Sequence record: OQ921332.1
Source of the DNA: Escherichia phage vB_EcoP_PAS59
DNA length: 64,000 bases
Direction: 5' to 3' (one strand)
Made by a program: the position numbers and the translations under genes. The notes below the pieces were generated by a model. It ran no database searches and had not been told where the DNA came from. It saw nothing but the letters and a program-made list of their open reading frames with translations. Below, one piece after another: positions 14,257 to 54,938 of the stretch; position 1 is the first letter of the stretch; each line of letters opens with the position of its first letter.

Positions 14257-14265
14257 AAATGTATA
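14257..14265 (+). promoter_or_regulatory. promoter-like element AAATGTATA (8/9 to TAATGTATA)
   Basis: Intergenic, about 40 bp before ATG 14303. Confidence 0.3.
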
Positions 14266-14302
14266 TACAGTATAAGAATATTGTATGAAACAGGAGAGAG
14301 TT

Positions 14303-14632
14303 ATGTTAGATTTGAGTAAAGTGGCCCCGCCATCTGAAGAGATTAGCAAAGCTAAAGTTATGCAGCAGTTCTATCATCGTGACATGCTTGGTCGTTATAT
14401 CAAGAATCGTGATGTTGTTGCATGGTCTATTGGAAACCAAGGCTATCTTCTCAAAGTGTTGCAAGTTACTGGCTCAACAGCCAAGCGAGTCAAAGTCTAT
14501 GACCCTGAGATGGGGCGTTCTAAATCGGTAGACCCACAGAATTGCATTGTTATTACACAGCAGGTCATGGATAACATTGCTCGTAATGTAGCTAATTCAA
14601 CTAACTTAGAAGGGGATGCACCTAATGCATAA
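14303..14632 (+). CDS. hypothetical protein
   Basis: CAGGAGAGAG before ATG at 14303. Confidence 0.4.
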   Translation: MLDLSKVAPPSEEISKAKVMQQFYHRDMLGRYIKNRDVVAWSIGNQGYLLKVLQVTGSTAKRVKVYDPEMGRSKSVDPQNCIVITQQVMDNIARNVANSTNLEGDAPNA

Positions 14633-15191
14633 TAATGTCTTCGACTTACCAGAACTAACAAGAGTGGGTTCTAGTAATCCATTCTCTACTACTGATTCTT
14701 CTATCTCTCGTCTTGAGGGAATGAATAAACTGATTAGCAGTAACAGCCTAGAGCACATTCTTTGTGGTGTGCAGGCTAACCTTGAACTTCTACACATCAA
14801 AGCAAAGAACTACCACTGGAACGTCTCTGGAGCTGGTTTCCAAGGTGTTCATGGGATGTTCGATGAGTTAGAAGATTATGCTCGTGAGGCAGGCGACCGA
14901 ATAGCAGAGCGTATGCGCTTCCATTGTGTTAAGGTGGATGCCACTGCTAGTAACTATTTAGGTCACGCTTGGTTCCGAGAAGGTAACGCTGATCTCGACA
15001 TGGACGGTATGCTTTCCGACATGTGCATGACTCTTATGTGTATCATTGAGAAGATGGACGAGTTTGATTCAGACTTGTGCACCTATCCAGTTGATCAGAG
15101 TATGCTTCAAGAAATTAATGAAGGTCTTGGCAAGTTCTGTTACTTTGTCAAGAGCAACATGTCCCACTCTGGTGGTGATGTGTCTTACTAA
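14625..15191 (+). CDS. Dps-like ferritin-family protein
   Basis: 'KAKNYHWNVSGAGFQGVHGMFDELEDYAREAGDRIAER' closely matches the Dps ferroxidase-region signature. Confidence 0.65.
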   Translation: MHNNVFDLPELTRVGSSNPFSTTDSSISRLEGMNKLISSNSLEHILCGVQANLELLHIKAKNYHWNVSGAGFQGVHGMFDELEDYAREAGDRIAERMRFHCVKVDATASNYLGHAWFREGNADLDMDGMLSDMCMTLMCIIEKMDEFDSDLCTYPVDQSMLQEINEGLGKFCYFVKSNMSHSGGDVSY

Positions 15192-15254
15192 TCAAACCTC
15201 CGCCCTGTCTCGTTTGTTCAAGAGGTGGGGCGAACTTTTTATAAGGATGTGAAT

Positions 15255-15434
15255 ATGTTTTCAGCAATCGTATGGTCTGTGTGGGCAATTCTTGTTGGCG
15301 GTATCGTTTATCTGGCTCAGAAGCAGATGCTTAAAGAGAATCCGAATGATGCCAAACCTATTAAACATGGTAGCATTGCTCTGGTAGTTTTCTCTGTTGT
15401 CATTCCTTTCCTTCTCCACCTGTTGACTGCATAA
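15255..15434 (+). CDS. small two-TM membrane protein, tandem paralog A
   Basis: Two hydrophobic segments flanking 'KENPNDAKPIKHGS'. Confidence 0.4.
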   Translation: MFSAIVWSVWAILVGGIVYLAQKQMLKENPNDAKPIKHGSIALVVFSVVIPFLLHLLTA

Positions 15435-15443
15435 GGGTTTGAT

Positions 15444-15629
15444 ATGATTTCACTGATTGTGTGGGCCGTGTGGTCGTTAATAGTTGGTACTGTTATATAT
15501 AAAGCTCGAAATTTAGCAATTAAAGAAAACCCAGCAGAAGAGGATGTTAAAGCTATCAAGCTAGGTAGTGTTGTTCTGGTACATTTTGCTATAACACTAC
15601 CTCTTGTTATTATTCTTTGTATGCTATAA
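15444..15629 (+). CDS. small two-TM membrane protein, tandem paralog B
   Basis: Same architecture, 'KENPAEEDVKAIKLGS'. Confidence 0.4.
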   Translation: MISLIVWAVWSLIVGTVIYKARNLAIKENPAEEDVKAIKLGSVVLVHFAITLPLVIILCML

Positions 15630-15819
15630 GGAACCCAAAGAGTGAAACTAAACCTACCTGAAGAATTACAAGCACATGCCATTATCGTTAGTGGCTGTGT
15701 GATGGGTCTTGGTCAGACAAAGAAGATTGCTCATGACTTAGCAAAAGGTCAGTATAAATCTTTTATTGTTGTTCCTGCTACCCAGCGTCATATCAATCTG
15801 TTTATTAACAAGGAATAGA

Positions 15820-16095
15820 ATGAGTAAAGTAATTAAGTTTTATAGTGATCAGTGTGCTCCATGTAAAGCAATGGCTCCTACCTTTGAGAAGGTTGTTAAG
15901 GAGTTTGATGTAGAAGTGGAAGAGATTAACATCCTTGAAGGTGATGGTCGTGAACAAGCTGTTAAGTATGGTGTACGAAGTATCCCTGCTTTCGTTGTGC
16001 CTGACCGTAACAGTGGTGCACACTACAGCCTCTCCGGTATGCAGACTGAAGCAAACCTGAAAGCATTTTTGGATACAGCTCTAGGCAATAAATAA
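15820..16095 (+). CDS. thioredoxin-like protein
   Basis: 'KFYSDQCAPCKAMAP' CxxC active site in thioredoxin context; about 90 aa. Confidence 0.6.
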   Translation: MSKVIKFYSDQCAPCKAMAPTFEKVVKEFDVEVEEINILEGDGREQAVKYGVRSIPAFVVPDRNSGAHYSLSGMQTEANLKAFLDTALGNK

Positions 16096-16110
16096 TAAGG
16101 GTATTCACGG

Positions 16111-16602
16111 ATGAATAATATTGACCCGTCAATAAAAGAAGCTCTTGATTACGACCCTTTGACTGGAGATTTCCGATGGGTTAAAACTTATGGAAAAGGA
16201 CACAAAGGGTCTATAGCTGGTTCTGTAAATACCAATGGGTATTTGAGAATCGTTTATAAAGGTGCTAGATACTACGCTCATCGACTTGCTTACTGGTGGG
16301 ACACTGGATTGCTTCCTGAAGAAGTAGATCACATAGACCGCAACAGGATAAACAACAAAAGAGAGAATCTTAGGGGGACTACTAGATCAGGAAATGGCCT
16401 AAACAAAGTAGCTCAGAGTAATAATTTATCAACCGGAGTGATTGGAGTGACTGTCCATAGAAGGAAAAGTGGCTCTATTGCTTACCGGGCGGTATTTAAA
16501 TCTAAGCACATAGGACTCTTCTCAACCATAGAAGAAGCCTCTAGGGAATATAATAAAGTCAAGGAGACTTACATAAATGACAATCAAAGCTTCATTAATT
16601 GA
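16111..16602 (+). CDS. HNH homing endonuclease with AP2-like DNA-binding domain
   Basis: 'LDYDPLTGDFRW...AHRLAYWW...DHIDRNRINNKRENLR' plus 'GVIGVTVHRRKSGSIAYRA'. Confidence 0.7.
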   Translation: MNNIDPSIKEALDYDPLTGDFRWVKTYGKGHKGSIAGSVNTNGYLRIVYKGARYYAHRLAYWWDTGLLPEEVDHIDRNRINNKRENLRGTTRSGNGLNKVAQSNNLSTGVIGVTVHRRKSGSIAYRAVFKSKHIGLFSTIEEASREYNKVKETYINDNQSFIN

Positions 16603-17224
16603 TAACTTCGGTTCAGATCTTACAGTAGTCAATGCTGCTCGTGTAACTATGGGGGTAGAAAGGGAAGAATTAAAAGAAAGTGACACTCGTCTAATAAATT
16701 TTCTAGCTCGGGAACGGCACGTAAGTCCTTTTCGTCACCCACAAGCGAGCTTCAGATGCGAAGCTCCTATAGCAATTGCACGACAGTTACAGAAGCATCA
16801 AGTTGGTTTTTCTTGGAACGAGATGAGTCGTAGATATAAAGATGGAGCAGTGGATATTTTCATACCTAAAGAAATCTTCTCCCGTCCAGATGATCTACAT
16901 TCTGGTTCTGGAATACTTCTTGAAGGGGAGGAAGAGGCAAAAGCTTTAGCTTTGTTTAACTCTGCGTACGAGGCATCTCTTGCTAGTTATGACGAATTGA
17001 TTAAGTTCGTAGCTCCTGAACAAGCTAGATTTGTTTTACCTCAAGGTATGGTAACTACTTGGTACTGGACTGGTAGCTTGTATGGCTGGTTTGAATTGTG
17101 TCGTCAACGACTATCATCCCATGCTCAATATGAAGTTCGACTATTTGCTCAGTCATTAGATGAAGAGATGGCTAAACTCTATCCAATCTCATGGGCAGCT
17201 TTGAAGAAAACTTTGGAGAGTTAA
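16577..17224 (+). CDS. thyX: ThyX-family (flavin-dependent thymidylate synthase-like) protein with variant signature
   Basis: 'HVSPFRH...ARQLQKHQVGFSWNEMSRRY' parallels ThyX 'SPFEH...RHR-x7-S..RY', but RHR is replaced by KHQ. Confidence 0.55.
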   Translation: MTIKASLIDNFGSDLTVVNAARVTMGVEREELKESDTRLINFLARERHVSPFRHPQASFRCEAPIAIARQLQKHQVGFSWNEMSRRYKDGAVDIFIPKEIFSRPDDLHSGSGILLEGEEEAKALALFNSAYEASLASYDELIKFVAPEQARFVLPQGMVTTWYWTGSLYGWFELCRQRLSSHAQYEVRLFAQSLDEEMAKLYPISWAALKKTLES

Positions 17225-17369
17225 TTTTGGAAGAAAACGATGATGATGTTTTCTGTACACGGTGCGGTATGACAGTTGATGATGCTTACGACCCTACAGT
17301 AGAGATTTGTCCTTGCTGCGGAGTTTGTGAGTATTGTTGTAGTCACAATTCAGATGAATAGGTAAAACT

Positions 17370-17555
17370 GTGGACTTATACAAAACATGTAGCTTCTGTC
17401 AAAAGCAGAAGCTTCTTATCAACTTCAAGCTGAACGAGGAAACAGGTTTGGGTCATGCTTTTTGTCATGATTGCAGACACTACCTTGAACAGAAACAATA
17501 TATAAACTGGTTGCATTATTTCAACCCCAGCATCTACGAGCACAAGGTTATCTAA
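17370..17555 (+). CDS. small Cys-rich (zinc-ribbon-like) protein
   Basis: CSFC...CHDC pattern. Confidence 0.4.
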   Translation: MDLYKTCSFCQKQKLLINFKLNEETGLGHAFCHDCRHYLEQKQYINWLHYFNPSIYEHKVI

Positions 17556-17876
17556 ATGATCAACGATAGTACATTTAGGACTGGTAACGGAAATGAAATC
17601 AGTCCTGCTGAAGTGATTAAACGACACAGAACACAGATGCTTATCCACTCCTATTTGTATTATTGGTTGGATGACCCAATCTGGTCTGACGATAAGTGGC
17701 AACAAGTGGCTGATGACTTAACCACCTTGCAAGAGATGTATCCTGAGCCTATTGGATTCTTCGATTCAGAGTTCAATGGATGGAATGGCTCCACTGGTAT
17801 GCATCTTCCTCATGACGAGCGTATAGCTTGTATGGCTACTGAAGTATACCGTTTACATAAGGACAAATCAATCTGA
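17556..17876 (+). CDS. hypothetical protein
   Basis: ORF abutting upstream stop. Confidence 0.4.
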   Translation: MINDSTFRTGNGNEISPAEVIKRHRTQMLIHSYLYYWLDDPIWSDDKWQQVADDLTTLQEMYPEPIGFFDSEFNGWNGSTGMHLPHDERIACMATEVYRLHKDKSI

Positions 17877-18054
17877 AATGTTTTAAATGTGAATCAACTC
17901 TTCTCCATTTGGACTCGAAAGTAATACGGGAGCTTGCCAAAGGCTCCCCGACTAAAGGGAAGAATAAGAAGTTTGTCGAAATTAAGGTTATAGGTATCCA
18001 TTGCTCAGAGTGTAAATCCTGTAGCTTCTTATATGAAGAACACGGAGGTAGGAA

Positions 18055-18792
18055 ATGAGTCGTAGAGAATCTCGGAAAGCATCACGGAGAGAATTACGTC
18101 GTGAAGCTCTCGTCACCAAGAAAGGAAAGCGGGAATTTGAAGAAGTAGTTCTTGCTAAGCCGGTAGTACCTCAGAACCAATTCCAGAGTGAGCTGCTTGA
18201 TGCAATTAAAACCAAACAGGTTGTATTCACAGATGCTCCTGCTGGCTGTGGTAAGACATTCGTAATCACTTCTACAGTGATCGATGCTCTGAAGAGTGGG
18301 AAGATTGAGAAGATTATCCTAAGCCGACCTGCTGTTGGTATGGGTAACAGTCTAGGATTACTTCCCGGTGGGCTTCGTGAGAAATTTGAACCATACCTGA
18401 TGCCAATTGTTGATGTTATCACTCAGCGTTATGGTAAAGGCTTCTATGAGTGTCAAATTGGTAATGGTAACATTGAGTTTGTACCTCTGGAATACCTCCG
18501 TGGCCGTTCATTCAACGATGCTATTGTGATTGTTGATGAGTTCCAGAATACCACTCCTGATGAAGCATATTCAATTATGACTCGTCTTGGTGAAACCTCT
18601 CAGATGTTCTGTATGGGGGACACCAATCAGCACGATATGCGTGGTGAGAGTGGTCTAGATTGGGCTACTGATTTCATATACCGTCACAAATTGTTTGAAT
18701 TTGCCGCTCTAGTAGATGGTGAATCGGATGATATTGTTCGTTCAGGTTTCTGTAAAGCTATTGTCAAAGCAATGGAATCTGAAAAATCATAA
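18055..18792 (+). CDS. phoH: PhoH-like ATPase
   Basis: Walker A 'DAPAGCGKTF', Walker B 'IVIVDEFQN', size typical of PhoH. Confidence 0.75.
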   Translation: MSRRESRKASRRELRREALVTKKGKREFEEVVLAKPVVPQNQFQSELLDAIKTKQVVFTDAPAGCGKTFVITSTVIDALKSGKIEKIILSRPAVGMGNSLGLLPGGLREKFEPYLMPIVDVITQRYGKGFYECQIGNGNIEFVPLEYLRGRSFNDAIVIVDEFQNTTPDEAYSIMTRLGETSQMFCMGDTNQHDMRGESGLDWATDFIYRHKLFEFAALVDGESDDIVRSGFCKAIVKAMESEKS

Positions 18793-18795
18793 ACA

Positions 18796-18804
18796 TAATG
18801 TATA
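18796..18804 (+). promoter_or_regulatory. TAATGTATA promoter-like element
   Basis: Exact 9-mer, 33 bp upstream of ATG 18837. Confidence 0.4.
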
Positions 18805-18836
18805 CTCCTTAGTGTACACTGATATATTAAGGAGTT

Positions 18837-19154
18837 ATGATGACCGATAAGGCGAAAAGAGATTATGCACAAGAACGAAGAACTGCAATCAAACGTGGGG
18901 AGACAGGTGTTGGTAGCAAGAGCGGAGATGCTCAGCGCCACCGTGCACGTCGCATCGTTGAAAAACGCGATGGAAAAGCTGCTGTCCGAGGTAAAGATGT
19001 TGGACACAAACGATCAATCAAGTCGGGAGGTTCTAATGCGTCAAGTAACTTACGTGTTGAATCAGTCTCTCGAAATCGCTCGAACGGCGGCAAAAGTGGA
19101 GATCGTGCTGGAAAATCAGCAGGCGGTCGCAAAGGAGCTTTAAGCTCAAGCTAA
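18837..19154 (+). CDS. basic Gly/Arg/Lys/Ser-rich small protein (frame uncertain; an alternative ORF 18865-19143 overlaps)
   Basis: AAGGAG before ATG at 18837; TAATGTATA element at 18796; terminator follows at 19160. Confidence 0.35.
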   Translation: MMTDKAKRDYAQERRTAIKRGETGVGSKSGDAQRHRARRIVEKRDGKAAVRGKDVGHKRSIKSGGSNASSNLRVESVSRNRSNGGKSGDRAGKSAGGRKGALSSS

Positions 19155-19159
19155 TATAA

Positions 19160-20088: not shown

Positions 20089-21783
20089 GTGATGGATAAC
20101 CCTGATAAGTTACCTTTCATAACGGAGATGACAGTCGCTGATATAATCTCAAAACAGGCGAAGCATGGAGTCAACTTCAACAGAAGAAACGCTCGGTGGT
20201 TTGTTCATCTTCTCAAAGAGATTATTGTCAATATTGATAAAGAACTGATTCCTCTCCTCCCCAAAATGCGGGTGGATGGTTCAACTTATTCTAAACCTTT
20301 TAAGAAATCAGGTGCTTTACAGAAGTGGCCTCAGCTCTATTGCGATAGGGTTGGTCTTAAAAGAGAAGATATCGGTGGGGCGTTTACTTGCGTTGAGTAT
20401 GTAGATTTTGACCCATCAAAAGATGCACGTATTAAAGAAGCCTTGATGGATGAAGGTTTTATACCTCCAGAGTGGAATTATTCTAAGAAACCTTGGAATA
20501 CTTTTGAAATTCGTAAAGCTATGAAGAAGTATGGTACATACTCTGCATGGTATTCTGCTTGGATTCGAGGTAACGCTAAAGAGAAACAGACAGCAGAGAT
20601 GATAGATGCTGATATCCGAAGGTTTTTGGATAAGCACTTCCGTTATCACACTGTCAATTATATGAAAGCCTATGTCAGCGGTTTAGGTCTTAACCCTAAC
20701 AGGAAGAAGCCTGTAACCTTTGATGAAATCAAAAAAGCTTTGGCTACATCAAACAAGTGGCCTACAGCCCCTACAAACCTTGAGGAGACTCTTGAAGAGG
20801 GGCTTGGGGGTGAACTAGGGGGTGTAGGAAGTTTGCTTAAGAGACGCGTTGTAGCGGCTCACAGGCTAGGTTTGATTAGCGGGCTTATCGACAAGGAACG
20901 TAAAGATGGTAAACTGTCCGCCGAAGCTAATAGCTGCGCTACTCCGACATTTCGTTTTAAACATCGCATTGTTGTTAATATTCCTTCTCGCGGTTTGTTT
21001 GGTCACGAGTGCCGCAGTCTTTTTCAATCTGACTATTCCTCAGACGATAGTCATAACCATCCTTTCATCATTACCAACCATATCCCTGATGGGTGTTACG
21101 TACGAAAGGGTACTAACATTATCTACGAAATGGGAAAACCGGGCAAGAAAGACAAACCAATAGGTGCTTATAAATTTTATGTACCTGCTGGTCGTGAAGT
21201 CTTCTTAGGTTATGATGGCTCTGGTCTTGAGCTGAGGATGCTTGCTCATTACCTTATCAAAGAGTGTCGTGAGATGCTCGCTGAAGCAGAGCGGGAAAAC
21301 AACCCAGCTAAGAAACGGGAAGCTGAACGCGGTCTAGCTTCTGCTGTTATGTACAGAGATATTCTTTTAGAAGGGGATATTCACTCACATAACCAAAAAC
21401 TTGCTGGCCTTCCTACTCGTGATAATGCTAAAACGTTTATCTACGCATTCAACTACGGAGCTGGTGACGCTAAGTTAGGAAGCATCGTAGGTGGTGGCTC
21501 TGATGAAGGGGCTGTCATGAGGGCAAGATTCTTAGCAGAGAATCCTTGTATTGCAATTCTTATTGAACGTATGACAGAGAAAGCACAAAGTGGATACATC
21601 TACGGTGTGGATGGACGTCGTATTACAATGAGGAGGGATGCAACTGGAAAGGTTATGGTTCATAAAGCCTTAAACACCCTCTTACAGAGCGCTGGGGCGA
21701 TTGTTATGAAGTATGCAATGCTATTCCTTAATAAATGGATTGAGCGTGATGGTGTTCGTTGTGCGAAGGTTATTGACATGCAT
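20089..21783 (+). CDS. DNA polymerase (family A, T7-like), polymerase domain exon 1
   Basis: Motif A 'YDGSGLELRMLAHY', motif B 'RDNAKTFIYAFNYGAGDAKLG', 'ALNTLLQSAGA' as in T7 gp5; frame runs into intron (stop at 21811). Confidence 0.8.
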
Positions 21784-22752: not shown

Positions 22753-23107
22753 ATCGTATTACGAAATGAACTAGTCTTATTGATTAGTTCTTTTTAAGGA
22801 GACAAGGAAGTGGAAGAAGTAAAAAGTTCTGAATGGTGCTTGAAGCAACAAAAACTCGCACAGGAAGAAGGACGTTTTGATGATGCCAAAGTGTATGGGG
22901 AGCTTTTCCGTACATGGGTTGAACGAGAGGAGAAAGATCAATGATGGATTTGATTCGTAAACCTGCTCCAAAATGGAATGTATATTTCCAAGATGCTACA
23001 GGAAAATTTCACAACCAACTGGTTTATTCTGACGAAGAACGCGATGAAGTCGCTGCTCAGATTAAAGCAGGCGGTGGTACAGTTCTCAAAATTTATGAAA
23101 GGGAGTA

Positions 23108-25370: not shown

Positions 25371-25605
25371 ACCACCTGTTGTTTATAAAGATAGTCTCAG
25401 AGATCAATACAGTAAGATGTTAAAAGATCAAGCTGAATCTAACTTACTTTATCAGCGAATAGTAGAAGAATCTAGATTAAAAGGAATGATGGAGTGGTAA
25501 CTTATGTTCTTTACTTCTTAGCTTTCTTAGGAATAATCTTTTTATCTATTATTATTGAATTTGGTTTAAGTAAGTTAGTTAACTATTTAGGTAGTAAGTA
25601 ATTAA

Positions 25606-25671
25606 TATTCTTTTAAATAGAGAATCAAAGTCCCTAGGAGTCCCCACAACCTAAATCAAGGATTCCTTAAT
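25606..25671. repeat. perfect 11-bp inverted repeat AAATAGAGAAT/ATTCTCTATTT with 44-bp spacer
   Basis: Read directly; lies in a 415-bp non-coding AT-rich region. Confidence 0.6.
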
Positions 25672-25775
25672 TCTCTATTTTTATCTCGCAGGTGTCTCCT
25701 GCCCTTCGGTACTTGCAAGGGTTACAATGATTGCCCAATATACAAGCCTGCAATAGCTTTACTAGCTATACCATA

Positions 25776-25784
25776 TATACATTA
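25776..25784 (-). promoter_or_regulatory. TAATGTATA element in leftward orientation (no obvious target gene)
   Basis: Plus-strand TATACATTA. Confidence 0.25.
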
Positions 25785-25846
25785 CTACTTGTCATTATCT
25801 ACTACCAAAAAGGTTATAGTATAATAGAACCTTATCTGTATAGGTG

Positions 25847-25855
25847 TAATGTATA
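25847..25855 (+). promoter_or_regulatory. TAATGTATA promoter-like element upstream of SSB-like gene
   Basis: Exact 9-mer about 60 bp before ATG 25915; a perfect TATAAT also at 25820-25825. Confidence 0.4.
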
Positions 25856-25914
25856 TAGTATACAAACCGCTCAAAGAGAGCAACAATCTTAAATCTATAT
25901 AAGGAAATATTAAT

Positions 25915-26655
25915 ATGTCTATGATCCCTGAACTGTCTGTATCCCGTAAATCCAACTACGATGTAATCCCTGATGGTGAGTACGAAGCACGTATTGTTCG
26001 TGTTGTAGGTTTGGGTGTTCACAATCGTGACCCTTGGATTGACCCTAAGACCAAAGCAGTTACCCCTAAGAACCCAGCTTTCCGTATGGACTTAGCTTTT
26101 GAGCTGATTGGCGTAGATGCAACAGGGACTGATAATGAAGGCAAACCTCTGGACCCTCGTCCTGCTTGCCAGTTTAAATCTTTCGATGTAAACCCACGAG
26201 CTAAGAACTCTGGTATTCTAAATCTGATTAAAATGATCGACCCAAGTGTTCAAGCACTGAAAGGTGATTTGGGTTGGTTTAAAGATATGCTGTTAGGTCA
26301 GCCTGTTAACATTCTGGTTAACTCTTACACCAATAAAGCTGGTGAGAAGAAAAACTCCATTAAAAGCATCACTCCAATCCCGACTAAATATCGTGACGCG
26401 GTAGGTGCTCCTCGTAGTGAGTTGATCTTCTTCGAACCGTATGCTGAGACTGACGCTAACTTAGCTGCTTATCAAGCAATCTTCCCATTCCAACGTAACC
26501 TCTTGACTCAAGCTAACGATGCTAAGAATATCCCTCTGGCTGGTCGTGAAGTTACTAAAGCTTCTGATACTGAACAGAAAGATGCTACTCCAAGCATCCC
26601 TACCATTAATGAAGAGCCGCAATCAACCTTTGAAGAGGATGATTCGCCTTTCTAA
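25915..26655 (+). CDS. single-stranded DNA-binding protein (putative)
   Basis: Acidic C-terminal tail ending '...EEDDSPF' (as in SSB DDDIPF); sits after a large regulatory region and before a terminator. Confidence 0.5.
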   Translation: MSMIPELSVSRKSNYDVIPDGEYEARIVRVVGLGVHNRDPWIDPKTKAVTPKNPAFRMDLAFELIGVDATGTDNEGKPLDPRPACQFKSFDVNPRAKNSGILNLIKMIDPSVQALKGDLGWFKDMLLGQPVNILVNSYTNKAGEKKNSIKSITPIPTKYRDAVGAPRSELIFFEPYAETDANLAAYQAIFPFQRNLLTQANDAKNIPLAGREVTKASDTEQKDATPSIPTINEEPQSTFEEDDSPF

Positions 26656-27996: not shown

Positions 27997-28647
27997 ATGA
28001 AGAAAAAGACAACACCCACACGCTATCGTATTCATGGCATACCTATTAAATACTACCCAACCTTCGATGAATTCTATCGAGAGAATTGGAAAGTTGTGCA
28101 TAAGTATTTTATGTACGACATTAAAGATTATCACGAAGCAGAGGATGTTGCTCAGGAAGTGTTACTGAACTCTTGGCGTTTTGTATTTGCAAAGCAAGAA
28201 GAACTGCTGCTTACCGATGAAAAAGATATTGAACACATGACTTATCGTGTGAAGAATATCATCTGGTCGATTCGTTCTAATCGACAGACAGTTGGAGACA
28301 GACGTATCTATTCTATTCCAGAGGCTGATATGTTTAGACCTCCCGAGATGAATTCATGGGAAAGTCCTTTAGAGATTGCTATGGATAAGCATGATTCTAC
28401 TGGAGACCCATTCTTGGAATCTAGAATCTTTTTCTTCTTCCAAGACCTAAGTGATATTATGGAAAACCGCAAGATGGCAAGTATGTTCTCAATGCTCTTC
28501 CTCGGTATTCCTCATGATCACATCCAACAAGAGCTGGGAATTTCACACGGAACCTTCTATCGCCGTTATTCGGAGAATCGTGATCTGTATGAAGCGGTAG
28601 TAGAGAAGCACTTTGATAAAGAAGATCTTCAAGGGATGATTCAATAA
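27997..28647 (+). CDS. phage-encoded sigma-70 family (ECF-like) sigma factor
   Basis: Region-2-like '[17 protein letters not shown]' and C-terminal HTH-like '[22 protein letters not shown]'. Confidence 0.5.
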
Positions 28648-36440: not shown

Positions 36441-36476
36441 AACGTCTCCTTATAAATAAAAATGTCCTACCTCCTA

Positions 36477-36485
36477 TATACATTA
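36477..36485 (-). promoter_or_regulatory. TAATGTATA promoter-like element upstream of the 1481-aa gene
   Basis: Plus-strand TATACATTA in the 70-bp gap between 36511 and 36440. Confidence 0.4.
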
Positions 36486-36510
36486 TAAGAGATAGGACTT
36501 AGGTCTTAGA

Positions 36511-38178
36511 TTACTGTAACATCCAACTTGTGTCCGCTGGAGCAGAAGAAAGAGCACCTGTTAATCGAGGATTTGTAGCATCCCCACCAACAGCTGCTTC
36601 AGCTTCACTCTCAAACGTACCGAATGGGTCATAGAAACCAGCAGAAGGAATAGCACGGTTGACAAGAGCTGTCGCTCGTTTCTTATCCATACCAGAGCCA
36701 ATATACGCTTCGATCGTTGCTTTCTTAGCATCCTTAACACCCTTCTCAGCGGAAGTAGCACCAACAGTTGCCTGCTTACGAGCATATGACAGAGCAGCAT
36801 CAGAGGGACGATAACCTGCTTTAAGTGACCATGTATTACCCAACTTAACAAAGATGGACGGGTCTTCTGCAAAGTGGGCTAAGTCATCAGCTTGGAGAGA
36901 ACGGTTAGCACCGATTTCTGCCCTTGCGGAGTTCATAATAGCCTGCATGTAAGCAGAACGAGCAGTTTGGTAATCCTTATCCTTAACAGCTTTGTCTGCC
37001 AAATCCAAGTCCTTATGAGACTGGTTGAACAGACCTGCTTTCTCTGCCCACTGCTTAGCAACTGTACCTTCTGCTGTGTTCTGAGCCAGACGAACTTCTT
37101 TCGGATTGAAAGTAAAGCTCTGAGCAGCTTTCTCTGCACGATCTGCTTTAACTTGATCACGATATCCAATAAGTTCTTTCTGTTTCTCAAACTGAGCATT
37201 AGCACGTTCTTCAGCAGCACGGCGAGTTTCAGCAGCACGCTCCCGCATAGAGTTCTCTTGAATCTGCTGACGTCTATCCCATTCACGGTTAGCACGTTCT
37301 TCATCTTGAGCAGCAAGAGCCATTTTCTCCTGAGGACTAATTTGACGCATTTTAAGAAGAGAAGGATCTCCTGAAGCAATTGCAGCAGCAACCGAGTCTT
37401 GAGAGTAGCCTTGCTCTAACAGAGCGTCACGATTAGCTTCTAACTGTTGTTTAGTTTCATCCTGAGCAGCCAAACCAGAGCCAATCTGGAAAGCTTCAAT
37501 AGGGGACTTACCAGACATAATAGAAAGACCAACACCCATCAACCCTGTATAGAAACTAGACTTCTGATAGAAAGGTTGTTTTTGAAGTTCATTCCAAGCT
37601 TGAGCTGGGTCTTTGGCTTTAGCAACTTCCATAATATCATTATTGATACGCTCTTGATCTTTAGCACGGGTAGCACCAGCCATACCTTCAGGAGCAGGAT
37701 TACTATTAGCTAGAGTATTAATAACGTTCTGAGCCTGTTCCACCTGAACTGGAGAAAACTCTTTATCTGTTTCTTCCAGAGGTTTACGAGGGGGGGTAAC
37801 AGGAAGAGGATCACTAGGCATTAATCCAGCAGCCTGTAAACCTTCATCAGAGGAAAGATCTGGATTAGCCACAGCAGGAGCTGGTTCACCGATATCAATA
37901 CCCTGAAGGCTCGTAGGGGTTCCTTGATTCTCTGATTCCAGAAGTCTCTGTCTGAATCCTGGGTTTAACATAGCCTCTTGATCTTCCTGAGCAGTAGCAA
38001 CAAGAGAAGATAAACCTACAGGAGAGGCAGGAGGTCTCTGACTATACATTGAAACATCAGCAGCTGGGTAAGCAGGTCTTGCCATGTATGGAGAGGCCGA
38101 AGCGGCCCCTTGTTTAACACCATAAATCTGATTTCTTGGGTCTTGACTGCGAAGATACGCATAAGAAGTTTGTTGCAT
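36511..38178 (-). CDS. internal virion protein (putative)
   Basis: 555-aa ORF in the structural block; no motif. Confidence 0.35.
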   Translation of the reverse strand: MQQTSYAYLRSQDPRNQIYGVKQGAASASPYMARPAYPAADVSMYSQRPPASPVGLSSLVATAQEDQEAMLNPGFRQRLLESENQGTPTSLQGIDIGEPAPAVANPDLSSDEGLQAAGLMPSDPLPVTPPRKPLEETDKEFSPVQVEQAQNVINTLANSNPAPEGMAGATRAKDQERINNDIMEVAKAKDPAQAWNELQKQPFYQKSSFYTGLMGVGLSIMSGKSPIEAFQIGSGLAAQDETKQQLEANRDALLEQGYSQDSVAAAIASGDPSLLKMRQISPQEKMALAAQDEERANREWDRRQQIQENSMRERAAETRRAAEERANAQFEKQKELIGYRDQVKADRAEKAAQSFTFNPKEVRLAQNTAEGTVAKQWAEKAGLFNQSHKDLDLADKAVKDKDYQTARSAYMQAIMNSARAEIGANRSLQADDLAHFAEDPSIFVKLGNTWSLKAGYRPSDAALSYARKQATVGATSAEKGVKDAKKATIEAYIGSGMDKKRATALVNRAIPSAGFYDPFGTFESEAEAAVGGDATNPRLTGALSSAPADTSWMLQ

Positions 38179-39622: not shown

Positions 39623-40675
39623 TTAATTTGCTCCAAAGGCTCCTAGAACACCACCTAAGATATTACTCCCTGCGGTAGATAGCCAGTTGCTCTGACCGTT
39701 CTGTTGAGACAGGTTTGAGCCACCAATCATAGGACCAGCCATCCCAGCTTGACCTCCAGAAGCATTGTACGAATTCCAAGCATTAGTAGTTTGCTGGTTA
39801 GGGGTAAAAGCACCTAGACGACCAGCAATACCAAGACCAGTAATCCCAGCACCAAGGATTTGTTGTGAAGCATTAGGGGCAGCACCTCTATTAGTAATAG
39901 TGTACCCAGCCATTGGACTTACTGAGTTTAATACATTAAGCTGATTGTTAAGCTGATTCCAACCATACTGCTGACTACCAATAGCATTCTCCCAATTGTT
40001 GTTAGCTTGGAGTTGATCTTGCTGCTGTTGAAGGTTTCCAGCAATGAGCTGATTCTGTATTGCCTGTTGACCAGCTTGTACTCCAGCAGCACCTAGATTC
40101 AAGTTCTGACCTGCTAAACCAGATTGAGCATTTAGCAAACCTTGCTGATAAGAGTTGTTATTCAGAAGATTACTAACACCCATATTTTTACCCTGAATAG
40201 AGCGAGAGAGGTTAGTATTCGCTGAAGAAAGAGCAGCACCTTGGGCAGCAGCACGTCTCAGAGAACCTGAGTCAGATCCATTGCCAAGGGATACATTAGC
40301 AGCAGCTTTACCTGTAGACTTAGCTAGTGCAGAATTATTCAATCCAGAACTAAAGTTATTAACATCCTGAGCAGAGATACCACCTTTATTAACTAGGTTT
40401 TGGTATTTCTGAGCCAACTCATTCATCTGGTCTAGCCCTTGTTGAGTTCGAGGAGTATACATCTGACTAAGTTGGTTAAGTGTATTAGAGTTTGCTAAAT
40501 TAGAAAGAGCTGCCGTTTGGCCTTCATTAAAGCCCGCTATATTACGACTGATGAACCCTTGGTCATTTTGATTCATAGCTTGGGCATTGGCTACAATCTG
40601 TTTCAGAAGAGCATCAACCTGAGAAGACGGAGCTACCGTAGTCTTAGATTTAGGAGCAGAACCGAAAAGAGACAT
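39623..40675 (-). CDS. Gln/Asn/Gly-rich virion protein, tandem paralog 2
   Basis: 'MSLFG...KSKTT', 'TAALSNLANSN', 'LQQQQDQLQANNNWEN', Gly-rich C-terminus. Confidence 0.4.
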   Translation of the reverse strand: MSLFGSAPKSKTTVAPSSQVDALLKQIVANAQAMNQNDQGFISRNIAGFNEGQTAALSNLANSNTLNQLSQMYTPRTQQGLDQMNELAQKYQNLVNKGGISAQDVNNFSSGLNNSALAKSTGKAAANVSLGNGSDSGSLRRAAAQGAALSSANTNLSRSIQGKNMGVSNLLNNNSYQQGLLNAQSGLAGQNLNLGAAGVQAGQQAIQNQLIAGNLQQQQDQLQANNNWENAIGSQQYGWNQLNNQLNVLNSVSPMAGYTITNRGAAPNASQQILGAGITGLGIAGRLGAFTPNQQTTNAWNSYNASGGQAGMAGPMIGGSNLSQQNGQSNWLSTAGSNILGGVLGAFGAN

Positions 40676-42530: not shown

Positions 42531-43544
42531 TTACCATGTCCCTATTCTGATTCTCAAAACACCATTACCGTCATAGAAATCTATACGGCTTCCATTCATC
42601 CACAGCCTGTTACCACCAGAGCTTGGACCTAGTTGGAAATCTCCACCAACTGTAAGTCTCCAGTTAGTTCCGCTCATTGCACCAGCAGTGATTTTATTAG
42701 CTGCCAAGTTTTGAATCTGAGCATTACTAACAGACACATTATCAATTTGTGCCCATTGGATTCTAGCATTTGCTATCATTGCTGTCGTTATATTGACATT
42801 CTTGATGTCCGCAAATTCCATCCTAGCTCGACCGTTCTCAAAAACAAAAGGAGTGTTACCTGTTGTTCCGTTACCAACTATAAACTTGTTAGCAGTAACT
42901 TGAAATTGGCTATTAGTTCCGTTGTTGGTCAGCTTAACACCAGCATACTGACCGTTGACAGAAGAGTTGACACCCCAAGTAGCCTCATATGAAGAAAGTT
43001 TCATATATTGAGATAAAGAGTTCTGAACTGTAGTAACTTTACCATCTACCGTTGCTATCTGTTGACCTTGAGCGGTAAGCTCTGTTTGAACTAAAGCAAT
43101 CTCTTGACCTTGGTCATTTACAATACCTTCTACCGTTTGAATCTTAAGATTAGCCCCTTCAATAGAGGTCTTGAAGCCTGCTACCGTCCCATCTAGTTTG
43201 GTAGGAGGAACAGTTGAGTTATCCCAAATATCTTCAGTGGACAGATTACCCATTTGTGTCTGGATATCAGCAATAGCTGTTTCAATCTCTGTAGTAATTC
43301 TATTCTCAAGTTCGTCAAATTGAAGATTCATTGCATTAAGAGCTTTGATTCGAACATCAATCTCATCATGTATCTCATCAATTGCTTGGAACATTTGGTT
43401 TGTAGCGGTGCTGACTTTCTGGAGTTCATCATAAACCGCAACGTTGTATTTATCCGTATCCTCTACATTGTTGAGAAAGCCAACGTTGTAGGGAAGCGTG
43501 GTGTTGTTTCTTCCAGTATTCTTACGAAAACCTCCAGCACCCAT
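42531..43544 (-). CDS. structural protein (tail fiber/needle-like, coiled coil)
   Basis: ORF in structural block. Confidence 0.35.
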   Translation of the reverse strand: MGAGGFRKNTGRNNTTLPYNVGFLNNVEDTDKYNVAVYDELQKVSTATNQMFQAIDEIHDEIDVRIKALNAMNLQFDELENRITTEIETAIADIQTQMGNLSTEDIWDNSTVPPTKLDGTVAGFKTSIEGANLKIQTVEGIVNDQGQEIALVQTELTAQGQQIATVDGKVTTVQNSLSQYMKLSSYEATWGVNSSVNGQYAGVKLTNNGTNSQFQVTANKFIVGNGTTGNTPFVFENGRARMEFADIKNVNITTAMIANARIQWAQIDNVSVSNAQIQNLAANKITAGAMSGTNWRLTVGGDFQLGPSSGGNRLWMNGSRIDFYDGNGVLRIRIGTW

Positions 43545-50377: not shown

Positions 50378-50390
50378 ATTTAATTCTCCT

Positions 50391-50410: not shown

Positions 50411-50419
50411 ATTGTTAGT

Positions 50420-53400
50420 TTATTTAGCAGCCAGCTTAGCTTCCAGCTCTTCTACTTTCTCAGACAAGCACTTAATTGCTGCAAGAGCATCTAATAAAAG
50501 CGGGTTAGTGTCGAGAGTCATAACTCCACTTTTTTCCGCACTGTGAACATACTGAGGGTCAACCTGTTCTGCCTGTTGTGCAATCACCCCTCGACGTGGA
50601 GATTTCTTCTCATCACTCTTATATGTAAAATTCTTAAACTCAAGAGCTTTAATGTTACTTAGAGCGACACTTAAATCTAAATCGTCTCCAATGTCCTTAA
50701 CACTCGCGTCAGAGGTTCCAGCATTCTGAAGAGTTGTCCACGGAAGGTTGGTTTTGAGTTCTTTTGGATTGTTGTTTATGGTGTTAGTTCTAACATAAGC
50801 CGAACCATTCAAGCTTATCCAAAACTGGCAGATTCTGTTTACGGCATAAGAAGTTTGGAAACCTCCCCCATTTGCAGCTGCCCACGGCGAATTACCATCC
50901 GAGTCTGTTATGAACTGGTTATAGTTAGAATCAGGTAACACTGTACCACCCTGAACACCAACACCATAATCATCCTTCACCAAAACACGACCCCTAGGAG
51001 TCTCTATATTCCCAGCTTCAGTGAAATCAAAAGTTGTACCTTTCGAAGAAGTTTTATTATAAACCCCAATTCTTGCAGAGTATGAACCACCAACAATGCC
51101 TTGCATTTTGAACTCAGCTGATCCTTCTGGCTCTGTGCCAACCCTATAATCGGATATCAAGTTGCCACCTGTAACGGTTGTACCGTCCGACGGTCTTATG
51201 TCATCGCTATTAATAACAGACCAAGAAGTGTTAGCTGCAATGAAAGCACCCTTAGCACGAATCACCCATACACCGACGAAAGATCTAGGCCTAACTTCGT
51301 CTGCCTGTCCATAAATAGGGTTATAAGAATTAGCATTAAAATACACATAAGTGTATCGGTTTGGTGTGCTGGTAGCCGCTGTCGTAACAAATCCGTTTGT
51401 GAGATCAGTCTCGCGAACACTAAAGGCATCTGTCCCGCTGGATATTACCGCCCTCCCGTTTGCATCAACAGCACCAATACGCCCTGATATGTTAGGCGCG
51501 GCACTTTCGTAAACGTTACCCGCTGTCAATAATCCACCCTGATCGCCCCGACCAAATAGCCCCGGAATTGACCCGCTTTGAACCCCGTTGCGGTCAGGAA
51601 CTCGGAAGGTCGTTGTTCCGTTCCCTGAAGAGTATTTACCCCTCTGTTGGGGGTCTGCCAACCAAGCTGAATCCGTTATGGGGGTGAGCATTTGAGCATA
51701 TGCCCATAACTCAGGGTAATCAGCACGGTTAAGAAGCTGTCCGTCTGATGTTACATCATTTGGGTGAATAAAAGCACGACTGTCTACTAGTCGGAAGTCT
51801 CCAATATTGAAGTTGGAGATACCATTCATTGTAGCCCCACCACCGCCACCACCTTGGTTCTTCAACTGACGATAAGTAACAGCGTCGTAATCACCTACAG
51901 CATCAGGAACAGTAACCGGTTGCTGGAAAGTAGCTTTCTGTGTAAACGTTTTAAGATCAGAGTTTACACCGTCAGTAGTTACAGCAGCAGCACCTATAGC
52001 AGCAGGTGTTGGCTTATTGTTCTCTGCATAGAACAAATAGTCCCCAGAGGGTGTTGACAGATAAGGTACACTGGAACTAGCAATAACTGTACGGGCTAAG
52101 TGATCACCAAACACAGATGAATCTGAACCACTTCTAGAAACCATGTTGACTTGACTGCTGTCATCTTTAATACGTCTTAAAGAGATTCCATTGTTCAGAA
52201 CCAAGTTACCATCCATGATACCACCAGCTTTGGCAATAGCTCCAATTGTTGCAGGGGTGAGATTTACATTACCAGTATTGTCATTAGGGGATAACCCATT
52301 AACTGTTACAATATAAGGCTTCTGAGCTTGCACTTGGCCTTTGTATTCAGTATCTGTAGCCGAGTTAGGAGATCGAATTGTTTCACCACCAGTCCAGTCT
52401 GGGAGTCGGATGTTAACATAGTTAGTAGAATCTGCATCAGTAATACCGTCAGCTTGCTTACCCCAAGAGAAGTATTGCTTAGCACCTGCTTGCCATTCTG
52501 TTTCACTGACAACAGGGAGCTGACCACTGAGTAAAGATGGACCCAAATCTGCTGCCGATTCTTTAGAAACAAGACGACCATCAGCAGGAAGAATCCCGGG
52601 ATATGAAATATTCTTAGCTGGGTCATAAGGGAACATTACCATTTCACCAAGATACAGAGAAGGGTTTCCTGTAGGAATGGTGATATCAATGTTACCAGTG
52701 GAGTCTGGGATTCTAGAGTTAACAGTAACAACGCGAGGTTCTGTTTTCAAAGGCTCTAAGATTTTATCAGAAGCCACGGTGTAGAATGAATACTTAGTAT
52801 CTTCCCAAACTAGAATTGTCTCACCAGCCTTTCGGTTAATCGCATCAGCATCAGCATCAGCTTTAGTATTATAGGCTTTGATGAACCTGTCAACTTTCTT
52901 GTCGGTTTCTTCTTTACTGTAAGAAGCTACGTTTTCTACTTTATCCAACCCTACCGTGCTTTTATCAATAGTCAAAGAGACGTTACCGCTTTCGGCAGGT
53001 CCACCATTAACACTGATATCTCTAACAGAAGGGATTAGGTTTGCAATGTTTTCCAAAGTGGTTTTATGGACTGTGTTATCAGTTTGGTCTACGTAAAAAC
53101 CTAAATCCCCAGCGACAGGAACACCAGTATCAACAGTATTTAAATCTTTAACCGATCCATCTTTACCCGGAAGACCCTCAGGAATACCAAGGCTGATCTT
53201 ACCAGTGGTGGGGTCAAAATCTCCAGTAGCAGGTTGTCCCGGACTTAAAGTTGTCACTTCTACAGTCATTCCTAACAAGATATCCAGCTGTTTGTCAACT
53301 TCTACTAACTTTTGATTGATTAATGCGATAGCATTATTGGCATTAGCAACGGCAGCGTTAGATTGAGCAACAAGTTGCATCAAACGAGCATCTTGATCTC

Positions 53401-53641
53401 TGAAGTCTTGTTTAAGAGCTTCAATATCTTCACGTAACAGAACACCTTGCTGGTAGAGCTTCTCAACTTCTGCAATCAGATCATCAACCGTACCAAATTT
53501 AGCCTCTGCCAACAGTGACCAATATTTAGCATCAGCAGCATATTCAGCTGCTTGCTTATAGGCTCCAATAGAGCCTTCTGTTGCACCAAACTGACCAACG
53601 TTGTTAGGATTAGTTGGCTCTTGGTTGTTATAAACGATCAT
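50420..53641 (-). CDS. large tail fiber/spike, paralog of 48254-50377 with about 530-aa N-terminal extension
   Basis: Shares about 300 aa of collinear blocks with the neighbour; C-terminal S74-like domain 'GVIAQQAEQVDPQYV...'. Confidence 0.6.
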   Translation of the reverse strand: MIVYNNQEPTNPNNVGQFGATEGSIGAYKQAAEYAADAKYWSLLAEAKFGTVDDLIAEVEKLYQQGVLLREDIEALKQDFRDQDARLMQLVAQSNAAVANANNAIALINQKLVEVDKQLDILLGMTVEVTTLSPGQPATGDFDPTTGKISLGIPEGLPGKDGSVKDLNTVDTGVPVAGDLGFYVDQTDNTVHKTTLENIANLIPSVRDISVNGGPAESGNVSLTIDKSTVGLDKVENVASYSKEETDKKVDRFIKAYNTKADADADAINRKAGETILVWEDTKYSFYTVASDKILEPLKTEPRVVTVNSRIPDSTGNIDITIPTGNPSLYLGEMVMFPYDPAKNISYPGILPADGRLVSKESAADLGPSLLSGQLPVVSETEWQAGAKQYFSWGKQADGITDADSTNYVNIRLPDWTGGETIRSPNSATDTEYKGQVQAQKPYIVTVNGLSPNDNTGNVNLTPATIGAIAKAGGIMDGNLVLNNGISLRRIKDDSSQVNMVSRSGSDSSVFGDHLARTVIASSSVPYLSTPSGDYLFYAENNKPTPAAIGAAAVTTDGVNSDLKTFTQKATFQQPVTVPDAVGDYDAVTYRQLKNQGGGGGGATMNGISNFNIGDFRLVDSRAFIHPNDVTSDGQLLNRADYPELWAYAQMLTPITDSAWLADPQQRGKYSSGNGTTTFRVPDRNGVQSGSIPGLFGRGDQGGLLTAGNVYESAAPNISGRIGAVDANGRAVISSGTDAFSVRETDLTNGFVTTAATSTPNRYTYVYFNANSYNPIYGQADEVRPRSFVGVWVIRAKGAFIAANTSWSVINSDDIRPSDGTTVTGGNLISDYRVGTEPEGSAEFKMQGIVGGSYSARIGVYNKTSSKGTTFDFTEAGNIETPRGRVLVKDDYGVGVQGGTVLPDSNYNQFITDSDGNSPWAAANGGGFQTSYAVNRICQFWISLNGSAYVRTNTINNNPKELKTNLPWTTLQNAGTSDASVKDIGDDLDLSVALSNIKALEFKNFTYKSDEKKSPRRGVIAQQAEQVDPQYVHSAEKSGVMTLDTNPLLLDALAAIKCLSEKVEELEAKLAAK

Positions 53642-53650
53642 AATCTCTCC

Positions 53651-54421
53651 TTAACTGTAATGTTTAATTCCGTATAATTCACGAGAGCTGTGAAGACGGT
53701 CGATAGTTCGAGGGATAACTAGAGGAGAACCTGAATACTCAGCTTTCTTGCTCTGTTCAACTACTTCATCTAAGATGGCTTTCCCTAAAGCCGACCACTT
53801 CTGAACCCCATTATCATCTTGAACAAACAAGCTTGCATGACGTAATGTGAAATATAGAAGAAGCTCTGGAGCTATTGTTAAAATTGCACTTGTATCAGAA
53901 TCCTCATGAAACTCCGGAGGGTCTGCATAATAGCTAAGAATTACCGAATTCTCCGCTGGAATAAGAGGGCTTCCATCATCAGGGTAGACCGGAGTATCGG
54001 CGTTGATGGCTGGGTAGAACAGGAACCGACTTCCCAACCTAGTAAAACTCACCTCTCCCTGATTCCATTTAGTTGGGTTTACTGAGTTATTTCTTTTCAG
54101 CCAATCTAACTCTTCTGGAGAAGTTACTCGGAACATATGTCCATTACTTGCTCTCATCATCCACTGAGCTTCTAAGTAGTCTGGTGGAATAAAAGCCACA
54201 CCATCTTTAATATCTAAATATACTTCTTTTTCCAGAGGAGGAATTCGTAAGTTACGATAGATTTCTTTCTCTGCAAAGTTAATAAAGTTTGGAATCTGAT
54301 TAACAAATTCATCATCATCCCTGTCAGCCCAGAGGGACACAGCTTTCTTGAGCCATCCGTAGGTATTGATGGGATATTGAACGTCAGGCAACATAGGATA
54401 CCTCCTTCCAGTTTGTGCCAT
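53651..54421 (-). CDS. tail/adaptor structural protein (putative)
   Basis: Position between capsid and fibers. Confidence 0.3.
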   Translation of the reverse strand: MAQTGRRYPMLPDVQYPINTYGWLKKAVSLWADRDDDEFVNQIPNFINFAEKEIYRNLRIPPLEKEVYLDIKDGVAFIPPDYLEAQWMMRASNGHMFRVTSPEELDWLKRNNSVNPTKWNQGEVSFTRLGSRFLFYPAINADTPVYPDDGSPLIPAENSVILSYYADPPEFHEDSDTSAILTIAPELLLYFTLRHASLFVQDDNGVQKWSALGKAILDEVVEQSKKAEYSGSPLVIPRTIDRLHSSRELYGIKHYS

Positions 54422-54896
54422 TGATTATTAGGCTTATTGTGCTTGAAGAGACTCCAAACTTCCTAGCTAAAGCTCTAGCTCCGAACTGTCTGTCCCTCGG
54501 TTTATAGTTCTCTAAACAGAAAAGAACTTGTTCTTTAGTAAGTTTGGAATTAGGATTATCCTCAAGATTCCTTGGTGTTGAGAGTTTTGTTTCATAAGCA
54601 TGTACACAGTTTTCTTGTTGAGTACACCACTCTAGATTCTCAATCCTGTTGTCATCTTTTATTCCATTCTTATGGTTGACATACTCCTTCCCTTCTACTT
54701 TAGGAAGAAAGAGTTCAGCTATGACTCTATGTTCTAGGTAAGATTTCTTCTTGAAGGTTAACACACGATATCCCTTACTATTAATACATCCAGCACGTTG
54801 ACCTTTCTGTTTATTGAATATGTTACTCATAGACCAGAAAAGATGCCCTGTATTCGGGTTATATGTAAAAGCTCCTCTGAAATCTGGCATTGCCAT
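54384..54896 (-). CDS. HNH homing endonuclease with C-terminal HTH
   Basis: 'YVNHKNGIKDDNRIENLEWCTQQEN'; C-terminal 'ALARKFGVSSSTISLIINGTNWKEV'. Confidence 0.65.
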   Translation of the reverse strand: MAMPDFRGAFTYNPNTGHLFWSMSNIFNKQKGQRAGCINSKGYRVLTFKKKSYLEHRVIAELFLPKVEGKEYVNHKNGIKDDNRIENLEWCTQQENCVHAYETKLSTPRNLEDNPNSKLTKEQVLFCLENYKPRDRQFGARALARKFGVSSSTISLIINGTNWKEVSYVA

Positions 54897-54929
54897 AGGT
54901 TGTCCTCCTTGTTATATGTAGACAAAGAA

Positions 54930-54938
54930 TATACATTA
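54930..54938 (-). promoter_or_regulatory. TAATGTATA promoter-like element after the capsid terminator
   Basis: Plus-strand TATACATTA between terminator 54961-54991 and HNH start 54896. Confidence 0.4.

Follow-up and report, generated by a model that had tools for sequence, protein, structure and literature searches.

Six gp36-type promoters and a predicted divergent seventh, with a candidate structured RNA, in the phiEco32-like phage vB_EcoP_PAS59

Phage phiEco32 is a structural and biochemical model for phage-encoded sigma factors. Its protein gp36, a distant member of the sigma-70 family, guides the core RNA polymerase of the host to six promoters of the middle and late classes, and the sole element common to these promoters is tAATGTAtA, with transcription starting 6-8 nucleotides (nt) downstream of it, according to the promoter passages of three papers (PMC8948821, PMC4281155, PMC4331800). 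The mapped promoters lie upstream of genes 6, 13, 26, 40, 58 and 68 (Pavlova et al. 2012, as relayed in passages of PMC8948821, PMC4331800 and PMC4281155), and in the account given by PMC8948821 they were defined by gp36-dependent in vitro transcription. The same source states that every phage of the phiEco32 subgroup has such sequences at the expected places (PMC8948821). Here we analyse 64,000 nt of Escherichia phage vB_EcoP_PAS59 (sequence record OQ921332.1), referred to below as the window, in which the 9-mer TAATGTATA and its variants recur ahead of genes on both strands. Six of the seven sites that we describe are of this already known promoter type and are orthologues of the mapped phiEco32 promoters. 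The seventh, named Pdiv, faces away from the gene 40 promoter and is a predicted promoter with no open reading frame (ORF) to serve.

The way in which gp36 reads its promoters was revealed in 2025 by a cryo-electron microscopy structure of the open complex at the gene 68 promoter, P68. The N-terminal domain of gp36 reads -14A, -13A, -12T and -11G, and its C-terminal domain reads -37G and -34A, a contact requirement that was shown experimentally only for P68 (PMC12276001). A second phage protein, gp79, stabilises the C-terminal domain, and it acts both as an inhibitor of the sigma-70 holoenzyme and as a co-activator of the gp36 holoenzyme (PMC12276001). A preliminary description of the window had connected the recurring 9-mer with a phage sigma that recognises a single -10-like element. 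The link to a phage sigma is borne out by the literature, where the motif is the middle and late consensus tAATGTAtA of gp36 (PMC8948821, PMC4281155, PMC4331800). The -10-like character of the core also stands, but the word "single" has to be revised because of the -37G and -34A contacts made by the C-terminal domain (PMC12276001).

The window comes from a phiEco32-like podophage of the Gordonclarkvirinae and matches 98 phiEco32-like records. Its nearest relative is vB_EcoP_SU7 (95.4% identity over 4 kb); the phage is SU7-like, of the genus Suseptimavirus, and a species distinct from phiEco32. Early and middle genes occupy the + strand from 1 to ~31,900, and late structural genes the - strand from ~32,000 to 64,000. 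The promoter-type elements are distributed over both halves as follows.

14257-14265, + strand: P68-type middle core AAATGTATA, at -15 to -7; predicted +1 at 14272; predicted to drive the gp68 orthologue from 14303
14233-14245, + strand: -35-region box of P68, TTGGTAGTAGATA, containing -37G and -34A
18796-18804, + strand: P58-type middle core TAATGTATA; predicted +1 at 18811; gene start at 18837; phiEco32 counterpart at 42937(-)
25847-25855, + strand: P40-type middle core TAATGTATA; predicted +1 at 25862; followed by the operon that runs from 25915 towards the sigma gene
36477-36485, - strand: P26-type late core; predicted +1 at 36470; 1481-amino-acid gene from 36440; phiEco32 counterpart at 26014(+)
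54930-54938, - strand: P13-type late core; predicted +1 at 54923; gene start at 54896; preceded by a terminator at 54970-54993 with a T-run; phiEco32 counterpart at 9101(+)
62343-62351, - strand: P6-type late core TAATGTAGA; predicted +1 at 62336; ATG at 62331; preceded by a terminator at 62367-62385 with a T-run; phiEco32 counterpart at 1677(+)
25776-25784, - strand: Pdiv core TAATGTATA, divergent from P40; predicted +1 at 25769 (A)
25796-25808, - strand: -35-region box of Pdiv, TTGGTAGTAGATA, with the same letters as the P68 box

All five exact copies of TAATGTATA reported in the preliminary description are present (n = 5; 18796(+), 25847(+), 25776(-), 36477(-) and 54930(-)), as is the copy at 14257(+) that matches at eight of nine positions and reads AAATGTATA. 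The P6 copy at 62343-62351(-) is absent from that description. The enrichment check that it had proposed, against shuffled controls, gave five exact copies where 0.53 are expected, and none of 100 dinucleotide shuffles reached five. In the intergenic DNA, which amounts to ~3.0 kb (4.7% of the window), TAATGTATA is the commonest 9-mer, with five copies versus three for the next unrelated word, and a count of five was reached by 1 of 500 shuffles. The shorter core AATGTA occurs 44 times in the window; 37 of these copies are in coding sequence, and the remaining seven, all fitting (T/A)AATGTA(T/G)A, are the non-coding promoter-type sites, with 25776 and 25847 (in the region 25731-25892) classed as non-coding by the SU7 annotation. 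Location, not raw count, is thus the decisive evidence for the motif. The distances to the genes also agree with what had been reported, that four sites stand 30-60 bp before a start codon: between the 9-mer and its ATG there are 32 (18796), 59 (25847), 36 (36477) and 33 nt (54930). The 14257 site lies 37 nt from the ATG at 14303, which is preceded by a Shine-Dalgarno sequence, and the P58 core begins 4 nt past the stop codon of the preceding gene.

To compare the two phages, we located the motif in the phiEco32 genome and aligned each copy, over the stretch between -60 and +30, with those of the window (14 sequences). P68, P58, P40, P26, P13 and P6 match one to one by position. The deviant bases at P6 (TAATGTAGA) and P68 (AAATGTATA) are identical in the two phages, phiEco32 P6 carrying the same T-to-G variant and phiEco32 P68 the same A-for-T variant, and the P40 9-mer is exact in every related locus that was checked and aligned. 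In phiEco32 P68, a G and an A land on -37 and -34, matching the published numbering and so confirming the register. Across the 14 aligned sites the core AATGTA (-14 to -9) is invariant, and so is -34A, which is found in all seven window sites; each window site also has a purine at its predicted +1. On these sequence grounds, all seven sites are very probably gp36-type promoters. Activity and start sites in the window phage are predictions from the comparison with phiEco32.

Both phage proteins that the phiEco32 system uses are encoded in the window.

27997-28647, + strand: phage sigma, gp36 orthologue, 80% identity to gp36
8322-8564, + strand: gp79 orthologue, 75% identity to phiEco32 gp79

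The ECF-like sigma that had been noticed at 27997-28647 turns out to be the gp36 orthologue: it is 80% identical to chain F of PDB 9M7Y (E = 2.8e-117), a homologue that its depositors named "ECF sigma factor". The protein keeps every published DNA-contact and clamp-contact residue, including E79, H80, Y83, R84, W90, S91, S94, N95 and, in the C-terminal domain, the Y-R pair. A Pfam search (E <= 0.01) assigned it to no family, so that neither sigma-2 nor sigma-4 is recognisable by sequence profile; this is expected for so distant a sigma. The relation of gp36 to sigma-2 and sigma-4 is structural only (PMC12276001). The gp79 orthologue and the gp40 orthologue had no Pfam family either. In the SU7 record (MZ342906) the sigma, SU7_29, is labelled a hypothetical protein, and the generic "promoter" features do not match gp36-type sites; the SU7 genome paper left sigma and gp36-type promoters unrecognised, stating that the unknown genes "may" conceal an alternative sigma. 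Our results indicate that the gp36/gp79 programme of phiEco32 applies unchanged to SU7-like phages, which corrects the published SU7 annotation.

By analogy with the phiEco32 structure, (T/A)AATGTA(T/G)A would be the -10-like core read by the E. coli core polymerase together with the phage sigma, aided by the gp79 orthologue. The N-terminal domain of the sigma would read -14A, -13A, -12T and -11G, with the DNA melting from -11, its C-terminal domain would touch the -37/-34 region, and transcription would start ~7 nt past the 9-mer. The + strand copies at 14257, 18796 and 25847 would drive middle operons, the sigma gene's own operon included. On the - strand, the copies at 36477, 54930 and 62343 would drive late structural operons, two of them re-initiating directly after terminators.

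The arrangement of the late sites differs in part from the preliminary description, which had placed two copies just after a terminator. This holds for 54930, which follows a hairpin with a T-run (54993-54970), and has to be changed for 36477: here a 15-bp hairpin, 36464-36498(-), holds the P26 core in its loop and stem and is followed by the T-run ATTTTTATTT. The hairpin is kept in phiEco32 with several pairs changed. As this terminator-like structure overlaps the promoter, transcripts from upstream could end there, while those started at P26 would not, because the 5' arm is missing from them.

The copy at 25776 points leftwards, away from P40, and it alone extends the published picture. We compared 28 related loci drawn from GenBank phages, IMG/VR and metagenomes, phiEco32 included; IMG/VR searches for more distant relatives, by protein and by pattern, gave the same five contigs only, and a metagenome scan gave six more close relatives. 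The Pdiv 9-mer is exact in 27 of the 28 loci. In phiEco32 it stands at 36704(+), 72 bp from P40, and among the relatives the distance between Pdiv and P40 is 61, 71-72 or 190-192 bp. Pdiv and P68 have the 13-nt box TTGGTAGTAGATA in common, in each case 11 nt from the 9-mer. Mean pairwise identity among relatives is 0.89 in the Pdiv box, 0.41 in the spacer and 0.89 from -15 to -1, against 0.70 in the adjacent gp40 coding sequence. This conservation pattern is the footprint of a two-box promoter. We therefore predict that Pdiv is an active promoter of the P68 subclass, and consider this likely from its sequence. It is apparently undescribed in the literature that we compared, to which the primary phiEco32 promoter paper (Pavlova et al. 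2012) does not belong.

Two further observations concern the variation at this locus. The single locus with an altered Pdiv core, L025 (metagenome contig ERZ1034915 NODE-75), reads TAATATATA; its G to A change affects the -11 base, which gp36 reads with E79 and H80, and makes it a natural candidate loss-of-function variant. Some relatives carry an insertion of ~120 bp between Pdiv and P40, which is annotated as a 47-amino-acid ORF in phage EcM-vB1.

Downstream of Pdiv, no conserved ORF was found among the relatives. A 27-codon UUG frame in the window was considered and rejected, as it is destroyed in relatives by a cassette swap and by 1-nt indels. The sequence has the features of a folded RNA, with one hairpin at its 5' end and another farther on.

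25753-25769, - strand: 5'-terminal hairpin, ATAGCU-AGUAA-AGCUAU, +1 to +17, 6 bp, beginning exactly at the predicted start
25616-25680, - strand: long irregular A/U-rich hairpin of 65 nt, probably the 3' domain or end of the predicted transcript

The 5' hairpin is maintained across relatives, with 97.6% of the cells of its alignment paired. Two of its pairs show compensatory changes (C-G to U-A or A-U, and U-A to G-C), and three sequences have a G·U pair that is possible only on the Pdiv strand. Its covariation score of 0.413 compares with 0.164 in shuffles, of which 1 of 500 reaches 0.413, and controls slid along the sequence collapse. The distal hairpin lies within a block of ~80 nt, 25612-25690, that is nearly invariant in relatives (identity 0.96 versus 0.70 in the adjacent coding sequence), and G·U pairs stabilise it on the Pdiv strand, by 4.5-9.6 kcal/mol relative to the other strand in each of the seven natural variants. 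Both hairpins are more stable on the Pdiv strand than on the opposite one. The minus-strand RNA as a whole (170 nt) has a folding energy of -46.8 kcal/mol (z = -2.6), and the plus strand one of -39.3 kcal/mol. The scan for terminators did not report the 65-nt hairpin on either strand; its stem is A/U-rich and irregular, unlike the GC-rich terminators of the phage. The block at 25612-25690 may serve for processing of the RNase III type or may terminate transcription in both directions.

Between the two hairpins lies a central cassette, ~25713-25752, of which the relatives carry two unrelated versions of ~45 nt and ~70 nt (compared in L004, L006, L015, L017-L019 and L025-L029). Both versions sit between the same conserved flanks, ATTGCA... 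and ...ACCGAAGGGCAGGAG. Searches for a known identity or partner of the RNA were negative within their scope: Rfam gave no match at the gathering score in the window, and a permissive scan of 25450-25950 gave chance-level matches only (E > 2); ARAGORN found no tRNA or tmRNA under Pdiv; complementary 12-mers in the window occur at chance level (2 versus 1.2 expected) and on non-transcribed strands; and blastn of the Pdiv locus against 5,426 E. coli genomes returned no match that could be a host mimic or target.

Pdiv would accordingly be read leftwards into a structured non-coding RNA of ~150-160 nt (~25769 to 25612), and judged from its sequence its product is probably such a discrete RNA. The suggestion that the leftward copy might drive an antisense or small RNA gains support from the comparative evidence, namely conservation, footprint, covarying hairpin and strand-biased folding. 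The full proposal, which we advance tentatively and place a little short of an even chance, is that Pdiv is an undescribed, group-wide seventh gp36-dependent promoter making a modular non-coding RNA of ~150-160 nt, expressed in the middle or late phase and composed of a 5' hairpin, an exchangeable cassette and a 3' hairpin. The existence, ends and role of this RNA are predicted.

Several observations weigh against this picture or parts of it. The base -37G is present in only four of the seven window sites (P68, P58, Pdiv and P6), and the late sites P13 and P26 have an A. At P6 the leader would be only 5 nt long and would lack the Shine-Dalgarno sequence (GAAGGAG) of the gene at 62331, with which the promoter core overlaps; RNAs begun at P6 would then not have the same ribosome-binding site as those that read through from upstream. 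The one-mismatch neighbours of TAATGTATA are not enriched as a class (22 versus 18 expected). There are 438 different 9-mers with at least five copies in the window, mostly codon-biased coding words, so that the raw count of a word picked after the fact is not unusual. Only two to three U residues follow the 65-nt hairpin on the Pdiv strand, which makes the 3' end of the RNA uncertain, and it is the + strand that has TTTTTAT. Finally, the published count of gp36 promoters in phiEco32 is six and does not have Pdiv among them, as given in the relevant passages of PMC8948821 and PMC4331800; in view of this count, Pdiv may already have been assayed and found inactive.

The weak U-tract leads to the alternative that survives best, although we consider it unlikely: Pdiv would be active but its product not discrete, with transcription reading through into antisense of the upstream genes (25600 leftwards). 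Early sigma-70 read-through would then be silenced or insulated, either through convergent transcription or because RNase III cuts the duplex. The evidence that Pdiv is a promoter counts for this reading too, no minus-strand terminator was found for several kb, and it is on the + strand that TTTTTAT follows the hairpin, where the two transcripts would therefore overlap. On the other hand, covariation in the hairpin at +1, together with the nearly invariant structured block, indicates that selection acts on the RNA itself and not on mere passage of the polymerase, and the upstream genes vary among relatives while the RNA block remains constant.

The DNA just past the 65-nt hairpin suggests, by analogy with the T7 primary origin and with phiOL and phiOR of that phage, another role, which we regard as distinctly unlikely, namely that Pdiv is a replication promoter whose transcript would open or prime an origin in adjoining AT-rich DNA. 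Pdiv is an orphan promoter without an ORF, the stretch 25500-25620 that it faces has a GC content of 18-22%, and by the phiEco32 annotation the phage has genes for a primase/helicase and for a DNA polymerase. This AT-rich stretch, however, overlaps a 35-codon hydrophobic ORF annotated in SU7 (SU7_35); GC skew here runs with transcription and shows no sign of an origin, and the strand-specific G·U pairs favour a folded RNA over a DNA element.

It is improbable that Pdiv has no promoter function at all and is an arm of a 12-nt inverted repeat (GTAATGTATATA) serving P40, or a relic of duplication. The repeat that links the Pdiv and P40 cores is perfect, the published promoter count is six, and one metagenomic relative has the altered core TAATATATA. 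The spacing between Pdiv and P40, which ranges from 61 to 192 bp, is nevertheless incompatible with a fixed joint architecture. Moreover, conservation includes a separate -35-region box in common with P68, with a variable spacer between box and core, and the hairpin downstream covaries; these features favour Pdiv as a promoter in its own right.

A further reading concerns all the elements, which would be, or would also be, extended -10 promoters (TGTATAT-like) that are read by host sigma-70 and do not require the phage sigma. The SU10 paper suggests that middle promoters may serve both holoenzymes and reads TTGGTA of P68 as a -35 element, and a TATAAT stands upstream of P40. Yet the phiEco32 promoters were defined by their dependence on gp36 in vitro, gp79 shuts off the sigma-70 holoenzyme, a sigma-70 consensus scan does not pick the sites as good matches, and the late sites are without a TTGACA-like hexamer, which leaves this reading very improbable. 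Recurrence of the motif by chance or through AT-rich intergenic composition is effectively refuted: although many 9-mers reach five copies and one-mismatch variants are not enriched, the expected number of copies, the rank of the word and the shuffles in intergenic DNA, the agreement in orientation with downstream genes and the conservation of the sites at the same places in phiEco32 and 27 other loci all speak against it.

Beyond the seven cores, the -35-region boxes appear to be specific for promoter subclasses, with TTGGTAGTAGATA in P68 and Pdiv and a different box in the late sites.

36500-36508 and 54953-54961, - strand: late box TAAGACCTA of P26 and P13, found in both the window phage and phiEco32

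TAAGACCTA has four copies in the window, and the other two, at 20684 and 23456, are without AATGTA at the right spacing, so support for a late box is limited to P13 and P26. These subclasses may relate to middle versus late timing. A further match, TAATGTATT at 39930-39938(-), lies in sense orientation within the late gene 39623-40675, with TGGAATC at -38 (as in P58) and an A at -34. It is found also in phiEco32, at 23028(+), and the surrounding ~50 nt are unusually conserved; the site may be an internal promoter, inseparable from coding constraint. Close to the end of the window, non-coding DNA at 63843-63930(+) has three to four direct repeats, ATAACCTATG / ATGATAAC, with a 10-bp period, and a second repeat pair, CCTACCCATT(A/G)ATA, is found at 63676 and 63691. 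The repeats near 63676-63930 look like iterons.

If the Pdiv RNA is real, its role could be in regulation, in RNA processing or in priming of replication, and within the phiEco32 model system no non-coding RNA would have been placed in the regulon of a phage-encoded sigma before it. A conserved orphan promoter that feeds a structured RNA would add a non-coding output to the regulon of six promoters, and Pdiv would serve as a natural test promoter of the P68 subclass with no gene attached.

Among known systems, Salmonella phage 7-11 resembles the window in having a distant phage sigma of the sigma-70 family, SaPh711_gp47, that works on the host core polymerase (PMC8948821). Its late promoters (GTAAtg-16-aCTA) stand at equivalent genome positions, and their GTAATG core overlaps (G)TAATG of the window (PMC8948821). 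They differ in being explicitly bipartite, with a different downstream half; in addition, phage 7-11 lacks both a gp79 homologue and a middle class, and SaPh711_gp47 is only ~15% identical to gp36 (PMC8948821).

The likeness to phiEco32 extends to the 9-bp core, the deviant bases of P6 and P68, the positions given by orthologous genes, the sigma, gp79 and -34A. What departs from the published list of phiEco32 promoters is the seventh, divergent copy, which both the window and phiEco32 itself carry. The late promoters of phage T4 consist of a single -10-like element, TATAAATA, read by gp55, which is without a sigma-4-like domain and needs gp33 and the sliding clamp. As in T4, the -10-type element of the window is compact and AT-rich, and its reader is a small sigma, divergent and phage-encoded, on the host core polymerase; unlike gp55, gp36 has a sigma-4-like C-terminal domain that contacts -37/-34, and it uses gp79. 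Phage T7 has orphan promoters, phiOL and phiOR, and the origin promoters 1.1A and 1.1B, all read by a single-subunit phage RNA polymerase. Like these, Pdiv is phage-specific, has no ORF after it and faces AT-rich DNA, but in contrast to them the sequence that follows Pdiv looks like a conserved folded RNA.

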